Positions 30,520-35,925 of a stretch of 64,000 nucleotides of DNA are shown here, piece after piece (positions within the stretch are counted from its first letter, which is position 1; each line of letters starts with the position of its first letter). The stretch comes from an uncultured Acidobacteriaceae bacterium (GTDB lineage: Bacteria; Acidobacteriota; Terriglobia; Terriglobales; Acidobacteriaceae). Location: the NCBI GenBank assembly GCA_963842095.1, contig CAWJEY010000007.1, positions 137,602 through 201,601 on the forward strand, read 5' to 3'. Position numbers and translations under genes: made by a program. The notes beneath the pieces are model-generated. The model was not told where the DNA came from. It did not search any database and was given only the letters and a program-made list of their open reading frames with translations.

Positions 30520-31166
30520 TGTTCGCCATCTCCACTCTTGCCATCTCCGTTTCCATTCCCGCGTTTCTGGAAGAACCTTCCCAACCGCTCGCGCAGTTGC
30601 AGGCGTGCCCGCAACAACCGCGACTTCACCGCGGGCACGCTCAATTCCAGCGCCGCCGCGGTCTCCTCGGTCGAAAGCCCTTCCACGTCTCTCAGCACAA
30701 ACACGGTCCGGAAGCCCGGGGGAAGGCCCTGGATCGTCTTGCTCAAAATCTCACGCAGCTCAGCTTGCGTGTACTGCTGTTCGGGATTGGGGCTCCAATC
30801 CGCAATCTCACGCGGAAGAGAATCATCTTCTGTCTTGATATCTTCGTCGAGTGAGACCGTTCGTTCCGGCTTCTTGCGGCGCAACTTCATCAACGCTTCG
30901 TTGACGGCGATGCGCACCAGCCAGGTATAAAACTTCGACTGCTCCTGAAACTTCGCCAGGTTGCTGTACGCCTTCAGGAACGCTTCCTGCACCACATCTT
31001 CCGCATCCTCGCGGTTCTGGGTGATGTGTTGCGCGATCCGAAAAACGTTGCGGTCATACCGGCGTACCAACTCTTCAAACGCCGAGTCGTCGCCCTTCTT
31101 GGCCGCCTGTACCAGGGTCAGCTCATCAGTAACAGGCCCTTCTAGTTTGTTTTGGATTGCTCCCAT
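30516..31166 (-). CDS. ECF (sigma-70 family group 4) RNA polymerase sigma factor
   Basis: Region 2 (FEELVRRYDRNVFRIAQHITQNREDAEDVVQEAFLKAY) and region 4 (VFVLRDVEGLSTEETAAALELSVPAVKSRL). Confidence 0.9.
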   Translation of the reverse strand: MGAIQNKLEGPVTDELTLVQAAKKGDDSAFEELVRRYDRNVFRIAQHITQNREDAEDVVQEAFLKAYSNLAKFQEQSKFYTWLVRIAVNEALMKLRRKKPERTVSLDEDIKTEDDSLPREIADWSPNPEQQYTQAELREILSKTIQGLPPGFRTVFVLRDVEGLSTEETAAALELSVPAVKSRLLRARLQLRERLGRFFQKRGNGNGDGKSGDGEQ

Positions 31167-31368
31167 TGTCTCGACGATGCAGTATTTTGCCTACGATTCA
31201 CAAATCGCAGCACACGATGGTAACGACCATTCTACTTGCAAGCCAGGGATTTAGGCGAATCGGCAAGGCTCATGTGGGGACGGACGCATTCGTCCGTCCA
31301 GGCGGCCCAGGTGTATCGGGCCGCAGTGCAGCGCCCAAATGCGGATCTTCATGGATTTTGATTTTGAC

Positions 31369-31386
31369 CGGGAAGGGCACGGCTTC
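31369..31386. repeat. 18-nt dispersed repeat cgggaagggcacggcttc, copy 1 (copy 2 at 48462-48479)
   Basis: An exact 18/18 match in the same orientation. It continues into the degenerate palindrome GGCACGGCTTCAGCCG. Confidence 0.8.
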
Positions 31387-31497
31387 AGCCGCAGTGAACG
31401 GCCGACGAGAAATAGTGCCAGCCCCGTCTGTCCCTTCATTTCCAAGTCGTCGGATCGCAAAATTCACACTTGACATTGACAGATAATCCACTACCAT

Positions 31498-31851
31498 ATG
31501 GTTGTGGATAAATTGGATACAACGTTTGCCGCTCTGTCTGATCCAACCCGGCGGGCAATGATCGAACGCCTCTCACATGGGCCTGCCTCTGTGCATGGAT
31601 TGACGGAACCGTTTGCAATTTCGCAGCAGATGATTTCAAAACATATTGCCTACCTCGTGCGGGCGCGGATTGTGATCAAGACAAAGCGTGGACGAGAGAG
31701 TGTGTGCACGCTTAGGCCCGAGGCGATTAAGACAGTCAGGGACTGGGCGATCAGCTATCGCCGCTTCTGGGAAGAGAGTTTCGACAAACTGGATGTAGTT
31801 GTAAATCAAATGAAGAAAGAGGAGGTCAGAGATGACAAAAAGCACGGTTAG
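31498..31851 (+). CDS. ArsR/SmtB-family transcriptional regulator
   Basis: FAALSDPTRRAMIERLSHGPASVHGLTEPFAISQQMISKHIAYL winged-helix region. Confidence 0.88.
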   Translation: MVVDKLDTTFAALSDPTRRAMIERLSHGPASVHGLTEPFAISQQMISKHIAYLVRARIVIKTKRGRESVCTLRPEAIKTVRDWAISYRRFWEESFDKLDVVVNQMKKEEVRDDKKHG

Positions 31852-32341
31852 CGAAATTGAGCGGATGGTTGTCACAAGAGTTTTTGATGCCCCACGCCAG
31901 TTGGTTTGGAAGGCGTGGACAGACCCGAAGTACGTGATGCAGTGGTGGGGACCGAAGGGCTTTACTGCGCCGGTTTGCCGGATGGATTTTCGCGTTGGCG
32001 GAAAATCTCTCCTCTGCATGAGAACGCCGGATGGGCAGGAGTGCTGGAATGCGGTTGAATACCACGAGATTGTTCTGCACGAAAAGATCGTTTCCTCCAT
32101 GTACTTTTCGGACTCGAAGGGAAACAAGGTTGAGCCTGCGGAATTAGGAATAGAACATGAGGCCATCGACGGTGCGTACGACGTGACCATCTTTGAGGAT
32201 CTCGGAAACGGCCAGACGAAACTCACCCACATTGGAAATGAACCCATGGAGAGCGCGAAAAATAGCGGTCAATTGGAGGGCTGGAACCAGATACTCGATA
32301 AAGTTGCCGCAGTTGTTGCGAAGCTGGCGCAGGCGAAATAA
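31832..32341 (+). CDS. SRPBCC / AHSA1-like (START-fold) protein
   Basis: RVFDAPRQLVWKAWTDPKYVMQWWGPKGFT. It overlaps arsR by 20 nt. ArsR-AHSA1 is a common gene pair. Confidence 0.85.
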   Translation: MTKSTVSEIERMVVTRVFDAPRQLVWKAWTDPKYVMQWWGPKGFTAPVCRMDFRVGGKSLLCMRTPDGQECWNAVEYHEIVLHEKIVSSMYFSDSKGNKVEPAELGIEHEAIDGAYDVTIFEDLGNGQTKLTHIGNEPMESAKNSGQLEGWNQILDKVAAVVAKLAQAK

Positions 32342-32421
32342 GAAGTTGGAGTTTTGATGATTGTCATGCGCGTGATCTGAACGTAAAGCAACGCGGTAGG
32401 TTCCGGAAACCTAAGGGTGGG

Positions 32422-32532
32422 CGGGGCTGATGAGATAACCGTGTCGGCTGCTAACGAGCGAGTAGACTTGGAAGCGCTCAAGCGACCAAGGCTCGGAGGC
32501 AAGGAGCCGACACGGTTATCTCATCAGCCCCG
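32422..32532. repeat. perfect 28-bp inverted repeat with a 55-nt spacer
   Basis: The left arm is 32422-32449 (cggggctgatgagataaccgtgtcggct). The right arm is 32505-32532 (agccgacacggttatctcatcagccccg). They are exact reverse complements by hand check. Confidence 0.9.
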
Positions 32533-32545
32533 AGGTCAGACGTCG

Positions 32546-33997
32546 ATGACAAATGATATGGACGAACTCGAATCTGAGGATAAGCGCCTATGTTCTGACT
32601 GTGTCGGTGAGGTCTTCCTTAAGGCAGACATTCAGAAGAACGGGCGCGACGATGCGTGTTCCTATTGTGAAAGTAAAGGCAAGACGTTTTCGATAGCCGA
32701 AATGGCAGACCGAATCGATCATGCTATTGGTCAGCACTTTTATCTCACTTCAACCGAACCTTCTGGTCTGGAATACGCCATGATCAAAGAAGGAGACCTT
32801 GACTGGGAGCGTAAGGGAGAACCCATAGCAGACATCATTCAAGAGTACGCCCACGTGGAGCCCGGGCCAGCAGATGATATTCGCGGTGTGTTGGAGGACC
32901 GCCACTCCGACAGAGACAGTGAGCTCATGGGATATGAGAACCCCTTTGACGAGGAGGCGCACTACGCCGAATCTGAAGTCGATGATAGGGAGTCGCAAGC
33001 CGGTTGGCGGCACTTCGAGGACAGTTTGAAGACCGAGGCTAGGTATTTCAGTCGGACGGCAGAATGGACATTGAAGGATATTTTCGAAGGAATTGCTGAG
33101 CACCGCACGCGCGATGGCCGCCCGATCGTAGTCGAAGCGGGACCAGGCACAAGGATAGACGCGATATATCGTGCGAGGATTTTTCAATCAGCCGACAAGC
33201 TCGAAAAAGCACTGGAAAGACCCGACAAAGAAATTGGCCCACCGCCTTCTAAGACTGCCTTAGGTGGCCGTATGAATGCTTATGGCATCTCAGTGTTCTA
33301 CGGCGCAACTGATCAAGCCGTTGCCTTGGCGGAAGTGCGGCCTCCGGTGGGGAGCAGGGTGGTAGTTGGACGCTTTGAACTCATCAGGCCAATACGCTTG
33401 CTTGATGTCGAAGCTCTGCGATTACTTAATGTGACCGGGAGTATCTTTGACCCGAGCTATCTTTCTCGTCTCCAAAAAGCAAAGTTTCTCGAATGGCTTA
33501 GTCGGCGCATCGCTCTTCCGGTAATGCCCGACGATGAGTCGTATGACTATATTCCGACTCAAGCGATAGCCGACTTCCTTGCATCGAACGCAAATCCGCT
33601 TCTGCACGGAATTCTTTATCCTTCGGTGCAAGGAGGAGAAGGCAGGTCAAACATTGTGCTGTTCCACAAAGCCGCACGTGTGCAGCCATTGGATGTGCCG
33701 GATGGCACCGAGATTTCTGTTTCAACTTATGATGAGACCGACGACGGACGAGAAACTAACTACTGGGTATCCGAGGAAGTTCCACCTTCCAAAACAACGC
33801 CGTCTACGACGGGACTCAACAATTTCCCATTTCGTTCCGAGCGACTCAACGAGCCTTGGGACACCGACACCCGAGAATTTGTGCTGAAACTGAACGTGTC
33901 GAGCGTCGTTGTCCACCATGTAAGGGGACTCATATACAACACCGAGCCGTATAACGTATCTCGACATCGATTTGAAAAGCGCGAAGCGAAATTCTGA
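32546..33997 (+). CDS. RES-domain protein (NAD+-targeting toxin family) with a long Cys-rich N-terminal domain
   Basis: The R-E-S triad context is GGRMNAYGISVFYGATDQAVALAEVRPP ... GILYPSVQGGEGRSNIVLF. The N-terminus carries CSDC...CSYC. The ATG at 32546 has GAGG 10 nt upstream. The track start at 32417 would translate through the inverted repeat. Confidence 0.85.
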   Translation: MTNDMDELESEDKRLCSDCVGEVFLKADIQKNGRDDACSYCESKGKTFSIAEMADRIDHAIGQHFYLTSTEPSGLEYAMIKEGDLDWERKGEPIADIIQEYAHVEPGPADDIRGVLEDRHSDRDSELMGYENPFDEEAHYAESEVDDRESQAGWRHFEDSLKTEARYFSRTAEWTLKDIFEGIAEHRTRDGRPIVVEAGPGTRIDAIYRARIFQSADKLEKALERPDKEIGPPPSKTALGGRMNAYGISVFYGATDQAVALAEVRPPVGSRVVVGRFELIRPIRLLDVEALRLLNVTGSIFDPSYLSRLQKAKFLEWLSRRIALPVMPDDESYDYIPTQAIADFLASNANPLLHGILYPSVQGGEGRSNIVLFHKAARVQPLDVPDGTEISVSTYDETDDGRETNYWVSEEVPPSKTTPSTTGLNNFPFRSERLNEPWDTDTREFVLKLNVSSVVVHHVRGLIYNTEPYNVSRHRFEKREAKF

Positions 33998-34029
33998 AGG
34001 CGGATATACGAGAGCAGCGCTGAAGCGGC

Positions 34030-34106
34030 GGGTGGCCCATCCTTACATTTTCCTGGCACCCATCACGAATGAGGGTGCCCCATCCTTGCGTTCTTTGCAA
34101 GGGTGG
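34030..34106. repeat. pair of REP-like hairpins with a 17-nt direct repeat
   Basis: GGGTGGCCCATCCTTAC (34030-) and GGGTGCCCCATCCTTGC (34073-) are direct repeats. Hairpin 1 is GGCACCC(34055-61)/GGGTGCC(34073-79). Hairpin 2 is CCATCCTTGC(34080-89)/GCAAGGGTGG(34097-106). Confidence 0.6.
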
Positions 34107-34749
34107 GAATTCCAAATGCGAACCCCCTTGGGAGTTTGACTTTCCCCCACTCTAAACCTGACCGGAAAATTTCCACAGCCTACTTGTGACATCTGACCTT
34201 GCGCTCGTTTCCAATTCCTCCCATAATTGTCCAAGCAGTAGCAGCGCCATCTAGATAGAAAAACTCGGAGGAGTCTGGCGAGAGATCGCCCGTAACCCCC
34301 TTGCTTTCTAGATTTTGACCTGTAAGTTCTTTGACATCTAGATTTTACAAGCCAAACCATGCCTAAGCCCATGATTCTAGAGATTGAGGGGGGTGGGGGA
34401 GTGGGGGGGTACCCTGTAATCAAGTAGTAAACCCTACGCACCCAAGCCAAACCCCTGCTGCAAGTTTATTTTCAGGCGGCCCGACAATCTGGGTCGCCTG
34501 CACAGCCGCCAACAACCAGAGAACCCGCGCGACAGAAGCATCCGTCCGTGCAGCCGCACATTCTTCTCCGCGCATCCGCAGAGGAACAATCCTGGGCACC
34601 TCAATCGAGCTTTGATCCCTCCCCAATTTGCGTTACAGTCGAAGCCAACGCCACGACGCGGTTGAACAGGTACCGAAGTACTCTGGGGCATTCCTACAAG
34701 TGCCGTATAATCAGCACTTAGGGCTCGGCTCCGGCCTCGATGTTACCCG

Positions 34750-35925
34750 ATGGGCTACGATTCAGGGGTTACGATTCAAGGATACGGTTCTCTAAGCATG
34801 GTGATGCAGAACGAAAAGCAGAATGAGGTGCAGCACCTTGTGGAGCAGGCCGTGGCGGAGGCTCTTCAGGCGCAGTTGCCGCAACTGCAATCGAAGATTG
34901 TGCAGCAGGTGCTGGGAGCATTGCCCGCGCCATCGAGTGAGCCTGCCGCTCTAGCACAGCCTGATTCCGCCGCTCTGGTGCAAGCCGTCGCCAGCATCCA
35001 TGCGGGTTCCACGCAAAAAGAAATCCTGCGTGCTCTGCTCGATGCCGGCAGCGGATACTGCGCCCGCATCGCACTCTTCGTAGTAAAAGCGGGAGCTGCG
35101 TCTGGATGGCAATCGCGCGGTTTCGGCGATGACGACCCGGTCAAAGATTTTGCCCTCGACTTAACTGCCGGTCCGGTGGCGCACTCGTATCAGAATAGAA
35201 TTGCAACCCCTGGCAACATCACAGAAATGGGTGGTCCATTCGCCGAGCAATTCGGCCGCCCCGCCAACGAGCAGGTGCTGGTGTTGCCGCTCGCTCTCAA
35301 AGACAAAGTCGCGGCCTTGGTTTACGCCGACGGCGGCGACACCGGCAAGCTCGATCCCGGCGCCCTGGAATTGCTGGTAATCGCAACCAGCGCGTGGCTG
35401 GAAGTAACTTCGCTGCGCAAGCAGGCGGCAGCAAAAGAAGACGGCGCCCCGATGGCCCGGATCGAGCCGGCGGCTGCGGCCGTGCAAACTGTTTCTTCGT
35501 TTTCCGATCCCTTCGCCGCCCACGCTCCCAAGCACGTCCCCGCCAGTATTCCCGAGCCCGAGCCTGCCGCTGAAGTTGTGGAAGTGGCAGCGGCCCATGC
35601 CAGCGCGGCAGCAGCCCCGGCCACGGCCACCGATCCCCTGGCCGGACTCTCGCCGGAAGATGCTGACGTCCATCGCAAGGCACAACGCTTCGCACGCCTG
35701 CTGGTGGATGAAATCAAACTCTACAATCAGGCGAAAGTTGCCGAGGGCCGGCGCCACAAAGATTTGTACGACCGTCTCAAGGAAGATATCGACAAGAGCC
35801 GCGGAACATTTCAGAAACGTTACGGCAATACGGCAGCTGCCAGCGGCGACTACTTTCACAACGAATTGCTGCGCAGCCTGGCGGAAGATGACATCTCCAT
35901 TATGGGTTCGAATTTTCGCCGCTAA
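34750..35925 (+). CDS. hypothetical protein (GAF-like middle region, conserved basic C-terminal domain)
   Basis: 391-aa ORF. Alternative starts at 34798 or 34804 (MVMQNEK...) are at least as likely. The C-terminus is RFARLLVDEIKLYNQAKVAEGRRHKDLYDRLKEDIDKSR. I cannot confidently name a family. Confidence 0.6.
   Translation: MGYDSGVTIQGYGSLSMVMQNEKQNEVQHLVEQAVAEALQAQLPQLQSKIVQQVLGALPAPSSEPAALAQPDSAALVQAVASIHAGSTQKEILRALLDAGSGYCARIALFVVKAGAASGWQSRGFGDDDPVKDFALDLTAGPVAHSYQNRIATPGNITEMGGPFAEQFGRPANEQVLVLPLALKDKVAALVYADGGDTGKLDPGALELLVIATSAWLEVTSLRKQAAAKEDGAPMARIEPAAAAVQTVSSFSDPFAAHAPKHVPASIPEPEPAAEVVEVAAAHASAAAAPATATDPLAGLSPEDADVHRKAQRFARLLVDEIKLYNQAKVAEGRRHKDLYDRLKEDIDKSRGTFQKRYGNTAAASGDYFHNELLRSLAEDDISIMGSNFRR

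Follow-up and report, generated by a model that had tools for sequence, protein, structure and literature searches.

The 64,000-nucleotide stretch of DNA from an uncultured Acidobacteriaceae bacterium considered here (contig CAWJEY010000007.1; hereafter the window) carries a gene whose 483-residue product very probably belongs to the aRES ("antiphage RES") family, stand-alone NAD+ phosphorylases that act as effectors of an abortive, NAD+-depleting defence against phages. The protein has, at the sequence level, every feature by which aRES proteins are defined, and its chemistry and phage-defence phenotype are inferred from homologues with 32–33% identity. A first-pass annotation, made from the letters alone, had proposed a solitary RES-domain protein forming a one-gene, antitoxin-less, NAD+-depleting system similar to abortive infection; this proposal agrees with the experimental results on aRES proteins, which have the same architecture and to which the window protein is homologous along its length.

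The aRES system was described in a recent preprint (Osterman … Sorek, bioRxiv, 28 January 2026; 10.64898/2026.01.28.702374) and comprises stand-alone proteins of 300–600 aa, located in defence islands, in which the RES Pfam family is combined with PF18870; the RES family, printed as PF00808 in the methods of the preprint, is PF08808. aRES is found in about 4% of genomes, and the table of the preprint already includes an Acidobacteriaceae strain (10.64898/2026.01.28.702374). Three enterobacterial members, those of Escherichia coli UC5, of Klebsiella pneumoniae S_34AVR and of Enterobacter chengduensis GN04826, shield E. coli from diverse phages; infection of cells containing aRES is followed by growth arrest, loss of NAD+ and appearance of nicotinamide and ADP-ribose-1''-phosphate (ADPR-1''-P, or ADPR-1P), and both the formation of ADPR-1P and the depletion of NAD+ by aRES were shown in vivo and in lysates (10.64898/2026.01.28.702374). 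The phage pathway NARP1 can recycle ADPR-1''-P only with an added Macro-domain phosphatase, and some phages instead carry aRad1 inhibitors of aRES (10.64898/2026.01.28.702374). Point mutations in predicted active-site residues abolished the defence, and six UC5 mutants are listed in Table S4, at R182, R184, R215, Y225, E236 and S334 (10.64898/2026.01.28.702374).

The open reading frame (ORF) in the window is intact and its length falls inside the range that defines aRES; the RES motifs read in it by the first-pass annotation (GGRMNAYGISVFYGA, ALAEVRPP and ILYPSVQ...NIVLF) are all found in the protein. In the Pfam search that the same annotation had suggested, both families pass their thresholds, PF08808 with an E-value of 3.4e-20 and 73.1 bits (threshold 23.2) and PF18870 (HEPN_RES_NTD1) with 31.5 bits (threshold 27.4). 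The window protein aligns with all three tested aRES proteins; in particular, BLASTP against E. coli UC5 aRES (sequence taken from Table S4) gives 32% identity with an E-value of 6e-57, collinear over residues 11–414. In this alignment R209, R211, R242, Y252, E263 and S360 correspond to UC5 R182, R184, R215, Y225, E236 and S334, respectively, and all six positions are invariant or nearly so in a set of 108 homologues. The two proteins come from stand-alone genes, share the succession of zinc-ribbon cysteines, PF18870 and PF08808 as well as the six active-site residues and a C-terminal Phe, and may also have in common a variable mobile-element or defence context. In contrast to the tested enterobacterial proteins, the window protein belongs to Acidobacteriota (Terriglobales), is about 68% divergent in sequence and shows an insertion of about 14 residues (aa 70–83) together with a longer acidic stretch in the N-domain; moreover, its gene lies in a small chromosomal slot by housekeeping genes and not in a large defence island. 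The combination of NTD1 with RES, including an extra zinc ribbon on some RES fusions, was noted computationally in 2013 (Anantharaman et al., PMC3710099, Table 2); the first-pass annotation regarded these long forms as uncharacterised, a statement superseded by the January 2026 preprint, in which they are characterised as aRES.

An AlphaFold2 model calculated from the 108 homologues has a mean predicted local distance difference test score (pLDDT) of 88.5 and a predicted template modelling score (pTM) of 0.82. The comparison with RES toxins envisaged by the first-pass annotation bears out the fold: the top Foldseek matches of the C-terminal half are the Pseudomonas putida RES toxin structures 9r35_D and 6gw6_A (probability 0.96–0.97), followed by ParT (6d0h_C), with diphtheria toxin as a weaker match. 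Searches of the PDB by sequence, with the single protein or with the 108-sequence profile, reached no RES toxin, the link being made by structure comparison only. For the N-terminal half, Foldseek found no structural analogue in the PDB, and a viral structure library gave nothing interpretable. The CxxC...CxxC pair noticed at the N-terminus on first reading corresponds to C16, C19, C38 and C41, predicted to form a zinc ribbon that precedes and overlaps NTD1; in the homologues, C38 and C41 never vary and the conservation of C16 and C19 is 90% or higher, all four cysteines are also present in the three tested aRES proteins and in the enterobacterial plasmid homologues, and the region is modelled with a pLDDT of 97–98. 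The extension that follows the RES domain contains strands at aa 389–411 and 447–458 in the model, and its residues V456, V471 and R473 are conserved among homologues.

The solitary nature of the gene is a family trait. Relatives of the window protein were found at 294 loci, 80 of which were fetched; these derive from Acidobacteriota, Alpha-, Beta- and Gammaproteobacteria, Verrucomicrobiota, Nitrospirota, Myxococcota and one Methanoregulaceae metagenome-assembled genome (MAG). An all-against-all comparison of the ORFs within 4 kb in the 80 loci revealed no conserved partner, the largest cluster of neighbours coming from five syntenic Rhizobiales loci, and the small same-strand ORFs abutting the gene gave, with phmmer, clusters solely from closely related loci. 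This survey, also recommended by the first-pass annotation, finds no Xre or other conserved neighbour beside the homologues; the neighbouring families are heterogeneous, and many homologues adjoin genes of defence systems or mobile elements. Among the immediate neighbours, Pfam recognises ArdC-N, integrases, DDE and Tn3 transposases, TnsD/TniQ, resolvase and HipA, as well as TIR, SIR2, PIN, HamA and nSTAND NTPases, and PADLOC recognises pAgo, GajB, PDC candidates, a DRT reverse transcriptase, type I specificity subunits and mad5. As individual examples, an integrase and a Tn3 element are found at locus L126, a ParE/Phd pair at L128, and DUF1156, DUF499/HEPN_Swt1 and Nmad2 at L129. Homologues are also present on 789 plasmids, 258 of which are conjugative.

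Some further observations concern these settings. The plasmid homologues L125 (K. pneumoniae pP3_O1) and L124 (E. coli IncI pEC9-2) lie amid ParB-like, ArdA/ArdC, umuDC and SOS-peptidase genes, a gene set which, in our impression, resembles the leading region of a conjugative plasmid. L001, the locus of the closest relative (another Terriglobales MAG, 97% amino-acid identity), likewise has adjoining ParB-N and ArdC-N genes, which may mean that aRES is carried by mobile elements for their own benefit. Hma-like genes occur within a few kb of an aRES homologue at two unrelated loci, L001 (14782–17574) and L129 (333–6605); both have HmaC/DUF499, and L129 also has DUF1156 and HEPN_Swt1.

The resemblance to RES toxins brings into consideration an orphan type II RES–Xre toxin of the MbcT, ParT or NatT type, with its antitoxin lost or encoded elsewhere and a role in persistence or addiction. 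The RES domain match is significant, the fold resembles those of the P. putida RES toxin and ParT, and homologues are labelled 'RES family NAD+ phosphorylase' at NCBI; in fact, these toxins (MbcT, ParT, NatT and P. putida RES) have the RES fold and the R/E/S residues in common with the window protein and probably share a similar chemistry, the phosphorolysis of NAD+ to ADPR-1''-P. However, they are single-domain proteins of about 150–190 aa (145–159 aa for the RES toxin chains among the structure matches) neutralised by an Xre/DUF2384 antitoxin encoded upstream, whereas the window protein is a multidomain polypeptide of 483 aa, with about 235 additional N-terminal and about 100 additional C-terminal residues and no antitoxin. 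The NCBIfam model NF049844 (Res_ParT_toxin) scores only 15.5 bits against a cut-off of 110, no RES toxin in the PDB is reached by sequence searches, neither an Xre gene nor any other conserved neighbour appears in the 80 loci, and the full-length architecture is conserved across phyla, which therefore does not correspond to a decayed toxin–antitoxin locus. An origin of this kind is considered highly improbable.

A different question is the reaction catalysed. The R-E-S constellation is common to ParT and MbcT and hence to both chemistries, and the structural matches include the folds of ParT and of diphtheria toxin; the RES domain could thus modify an essential host or phage target as a protein ADP-ribosyltransferase, as in the case of ParT (e.g., on Prs), instead of acting as a bulk NAD+ phosphorylase. 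This is judged very unlikely: the ParT family model remains far below its cut-off, and homologues of the same architecture, in which these six residues recur, yield ADPR-1P and use up NAD+ (10.64898/2026.01.28.702374).

Several points weigh against the assignment of the window gene to aRES-type phage defence. The tested aRES members, from which its function is extrapolated, are only 32–33% identical to it and none is from Acidobacteriota. The RES fold of ParT can ADP-ribosylate a protein without NAD+ depletion, and such chemistry could also operate in the window protein, as far as its sequence indicates. The margin of PF18870 over the Pfam threshold is narrow (31.5 vs 27.4 bits), and the preprint used for this domain an HHsearch probability above 80%, which is not an identical test. 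In the window, the gene adjoins a regulator gene, the gene of an SRPBCC protein and housekeeping genes, which do not compose a classic multi-system defence island. A scan detected no promoter-like site between the upstream hairpin and the ATG, and the expression of the gene is only predicted. PADLOC v2 (2023) returned no match for the protein; its release predates aRES and is hence uninformative in this respect.

The features of the locus are collected in Table 1. The position 32546 is taken as the start of the gene because the alignments of 25 and of 108 full-length homologues begin at this ATG. A longer ORF of 526 aa, starting from GTG 32417, is an artefact whose 43 extra codons cross a palindromic repeat. 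The putative Shine-Dalgarno sequence is kept in the L001 copy, GAGGTCAAACATCGATG.

Table 1. Features of the aRES-family locus and of its surroundings (window coordinates)
Feature	Position	Strand	Remarks
aRES-family gene (predicted), 483-aa stand-alone RES NAD+ phosphorylase	32546-33997	+	Stop codon included; ORF, two Pfam domains, UC5 homology, AlphaFold2 model
N-terminal four-cysteine zinc ribbon (C16, C19, C38, C41)	32591-32668	+	Predicted; metal binding inferred
HEPN/RES N-terminal domain 1 (PF18870), aa 31-170	32636-33055	+	Putative role in sensing or regulation
R209 and R211, additional arginines of the active site	33170-33178	+	Just upstream of the RES domain
RES catalytic domain, aa 238-378	33257-33679	+	PF08808
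Beta-rich C-terminal extension, aa 385-483	33698-33994	+	Ends in Phe; conserved, about 100 residues after the RES domain
F483, terminal Phe	33992-33994	+	Last codon before the stop
Probable Shine-Dalgarno GAGG	32532-32535	+	10 nt 5' of the ATG, read from the sequence
1.5-kb single-gene cassette	32532-34029	+	Sole DNA common to the window and L001
Variable slot	~31260-34170		Between ECF sigma/anti-sigma operon and conserved 391-aa gene; loci L084-L093, identical sigma factor
111-nt palindromic dispersed repeat (REPIN-like)	32422-32532	.	Abuts the 5' end of the cassette; not part of aRES
ArsR/SmtB regulator	31498-31851	+	Pfam and NCBIfam; separate module, not part of aRES
AHSA1/SRPBCC protein	31832-32341	+	Pfam and NCBIfam; separate module, not part of aRES

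The gene is a horizontally acquired mobile cassette, as shown by its composition, by a nearly identical copy in unrelated flanks and by its position in a variable slot. The lower GC content estimated by eye in the first-pass annotation is now computed: the gene has 51.5% GC and 52.7% GC at third codon positions (GC3), compared with 58.7% GC for the whole window (standard deviation 2.2% among segments of equal length, only 0.2% of which are as low) and with a GC3 of 65–78% in the flanking genes. The blastn comparison of the window with L001 returns a single match, the cassette itself, 98% identical over 1498 bp and consisting of the gene with 14 bp upstream (containing the GAGG) and another 32 bp on the downstream side. 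Its copy in L001 is flanked by ParB-like and ArdC-N genes on one side and by a block with an HmaC-like ATPase (E-value 7e-123) on the other, flanks that are unrelated to those of the window. The 3' end of the cassette, GCTGAAGC/GGCGGGTGGCCC, is within about 3 nt of the point at which the backbone common with locus L091 resumes.

As a separate observation, the two copies (32546–33997 in the window and 10001–11452 in L001) differ at 16 non-synonymous and 7 synonymous codons, with a ratio of non-synonymous to synonymous substitution rates (dN/dS) of about 0.68, based on small numbers; 14 of the 16 replacements fall in aa 29–106 or aa 397–482 and two in the catalytic core.

The slot was delimited with ten related loci recovered by the exact sequence of the extracytoplasmic function (ECF) sigma factor, one of which, L088, is the contig of the window itself. 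Backbone homology, with about 82–84% identity in the relatives, stops at about 31260–31350 and resumes at 34027–34172. The cargo of the slot differs from locus to locus: L084–L087 contain a Y1 transposase (IS200/RAYT-type) and a protein of 426 or 490 aa with no match in Pfam or PADLOC; L090 contains a cytosine methyltransferase and a HATPase_c_3/SduA_C restriction-like protein, resembling a type II restriction–modification pair; L089 contains a 423-aa protein and L091 little else, while the slot of the window genome holds ArsR, AHSA1 and aRES. Y1 transposases are found in the slot among L084–L092.

Upstream of the cassette, Pfam and NCBIfam agree with the first-pass annotation in recognising an ArsR regulator and an SRPBCC protein and no Xre antitoxin. 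The two coding regions overlap by 20 nt, and the AHSA1/SRPBCC gene ends 204 bp upstream of the RES gene, with a repeat element in between. The same annotation had offered as an alternative that ArsR, SRPBCC and RES are a three-gene module on one islet, in which ArsR or SRPBCC would neutralise or control the RES protein. The three genes are in fact adjacent, on one strand and all of low GC, and the RES gene is not preceded by a promoter-like site of its own, so that they may be co-transcribed in this genome. This alternative is nevertheless extremely improbable, and it gives way to the finding that each part occurs without the other: L001 has a 98%-identical copy of the RES cassette without ArsR–SRPBCC, and the ArsR–AHSA1–hairpin block (31452–32529) is contiguous, at about 90% identity, in the metagenome contigs L095 and L106, with no RES homologue; the contig L120, also with no RES homologue, matches the block at 31709–32430 and has a hairpin copy elsewhere. 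In addition, HTH_5/HTH_20 and AHSA1 are both missing from the 25 Pfam families most often found immediately beside the 80 homologues, and the two modules are divided by a palindromic repeat with a fold energy of -88 kcal/mol. A promoter-like TTGACA-16-TACCAT (31470–31497) overlaps a 24-bp palindrome, ATCCACTACCATATGGTTGTGGAT (31486–31509), that lies across the ArsR start codon. The palindrome is probably the autoregulatory operator of ArsR, which would make ArsR–AHSA1 a self-contained operon. Because no promoter-like site is found between the hairpin and the ATG, transcription starting at the ArsR promoter may read through into the RES gene in this genome.

The perfect 28-bp inverted repeat reported before the gene by the first-pass annotation is present at 32422–32449 and 32505–32532; the arms, 31 nt long and 97% complementary, are 49 nt apart, and the hairpin has a z-score of -10.5. 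Exact matches to the 26-nt arm occur in 30 soil-metagenome contigs, none of which has a RES gene, and the copies, two or three in some contigs, are mostly 92–98% identical over 88–113 nt, as full forms of 108–113 nt or as one-arm forms of 88 nt. The homology to other genomes breaks exactly at the right end of the hairpin. From these features, the element looks like a dispersed palindromic repeat of Acidobacteriota, resembling a REPIN (a doublet of repetitive extragenic palindromic, REP, sequences) or a miniature inverted-repeat transposable element (MITE). As to a cognate RAYT (Y1 transposase), Y1_Tnp genes share the slot in L084–L092, but those loci are without the hairpin repeat, and no inverted repeats were seen beside the Y1_Tnp genes in the two loci scanned (L084 and L091).

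Two other identities of the hairpin were examined and rejected. An integron attC site was considered on the grounds that the homology with L001 starts exactly at the end of the hairpin; the 28-bp stem is perfect and has no extrahelical bases, no RYYYAAC/GTTRRRY boxes are seen at the outer ends by reading (and not with a dedicated integron tool), many contigs have the element dispersed as single copies and no integrase is seen nearby. As for a terminator, no T-run follows the hairpin.

The 752 bp downstream of the gene (33998–34749) contain no credible gene. The first-pass annotation had seen here about 750 bp of repeat-laden non-coding DNA; the non-coding character holds, while the local repeats are just small two-copy families. 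Further copies of these downstream repeats are scattered over other Acidobacteriota contigs, and from about 34027–34170 onward the stretch is conserved backbone, with about 82% identity in relatives, lying outside the islet. Elements of 34030–34420 recur in the unrelated Acidobacteriota contigs L112, L114 and L119; they include a palindrome, GGGTGCCCCATCCTTGCG...GCAAGGGTGGG, whose two copies (34030 and 34073) have diverged, as well as a G-rich run and the tandem pair CTAGATTTTGAC / CTAGATTTTAC with a promoter-like TTGACC-18-TAGATT. The same three contigs were considered as empty sites and discarded: the hairpin and the downstream repeats are common to them, but they represent other repeat clusters and are not orthologous. 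An Rfam search (E-value up to 1, 31000–35200) gave just two chance matches of snoRNA level, the hairpin and the downstream DNA matching no RNA family.

On the basis of the homology to aRES, a mechanism can be proposed in which the C-terminal RES domain would cleave NAD+ with inorganic phosphate, generating nicotinamide and ADP-ribose-1''-phosphate. Before infection the enzyme would presumably be silenced within its own polypeptide, without an antitoxin; the candidate latch or sensor is the zinc ribbon with the HEPN/RES-NTD1 and, possibly, the C-terminal tail. Phage infection would then activate the enzyme, with the consequent collapse of NAD+, stop of growth and block of phage replication, and the common phage pathway of NAD+ rebuilding, NARP1, would be unable to repair the damage because the product would be ADPR-1''-P and not ADP-ribose (ADPR). 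The gene would operate as a horizontally acquired, promoter-poor 1.5-kb cassette, placed between the gene of the ECF sigma factor and that of the conserved 391-aa protein; its transcripts probably arise as read-through of the neighbouring ArsR operon. A role of the N-terminal region as in-cis sensor or inhibitor, as imagined in the first-pass annotation, is plausible; the words zinc, trigger, C-terminal and autoinhib are absent from the text of the preprint (10.64898/2026.01.28.702374).

The C-terminal residue deserves separate mention. Phe is the last residue in 125 of 180 unique homologue tails (L001–L080 and P0001–P0120), compared with a Phe background of 4.4%, and D or E is often found at position -4 and P at -3, with a variable tail length. 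The terminal Phe is also present in the tested E. coli UC5 aRES (...DLMDF, read from the insert sequence) and in the plasmid homologues, and it is unmentioned in the aRES preprint (10.64898/2026.01.28.702374). Its conservation in the compared sequences seems to be one small feature that is new, and it is a possibility that the Phe might plug a pocket and be displaced from there by a phage factor. The tail was also compared with the acidic tip of the single-stranded DNA-binding protein SSB (DDDIPF), and general mimicry of this tip was rejected: some tails resemble the tip (DDFPF, EPDDPF), but over their last six residues the tails have on average a net charge of about 0, and only the terminal Phe is general across the homologue tails.

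Two broader ideas are put forward tentatively and are, on balance, rather unlikely: the zinc ribbon with NTD1 and the C-terminal Phe may constitute the infection sensor and autoinhibitory latch and, separately, the spread of aRES among Acidobacteriota may be that of a promoter-less single-gene cassette landing by REP-like palindromes, in a slot with which Y1 transposases are associated. If true, either would add to aRES a trigger or a mobility mechanism.

The putative aRES protein can be compared with other effectors. The MAE_18760-family HEPN proteins have in common with it the HEPN/RES-NTD1 as N-terminal domain; in contrast, their effector is a HEPN RNase and not a RES NADase, and they are known by computational prediction only (PMC3710099). 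The SIR2 proteins DSR1 and DSR2 and the TIR and SEFIR effectors follow a similar logic, with sensor and NADase in one polypeptide and growth arrest upon infection, although their catalytic fold is unrelated to RES and their product is ADPR and not ADPR-1''-P; in DSR2 the trigger is the phage tail tube protein.

NAD+ phosphorolysis as a means of abortive defence is already published, and the present finding is confirmatory and not surprising. With it, aRES reaches the soil Acidobacteriota, in which tractable phage–host systems are few, and it suggests that a real single-gene immune system can be recovered by a reader from the raw sequence alone. The two near-identical copies in unrelated contexts illustrate cleanly, in nature, how a defence gene moves as no more than a 1.5-kb cassette. 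The practical value would concern the way in which aRES senses infection, as the residues conserved at 32% identity provide a short list for mutagenesis, with W154, R166, the cysteines of the zinc ribbon and the terminal Phe as candidates.

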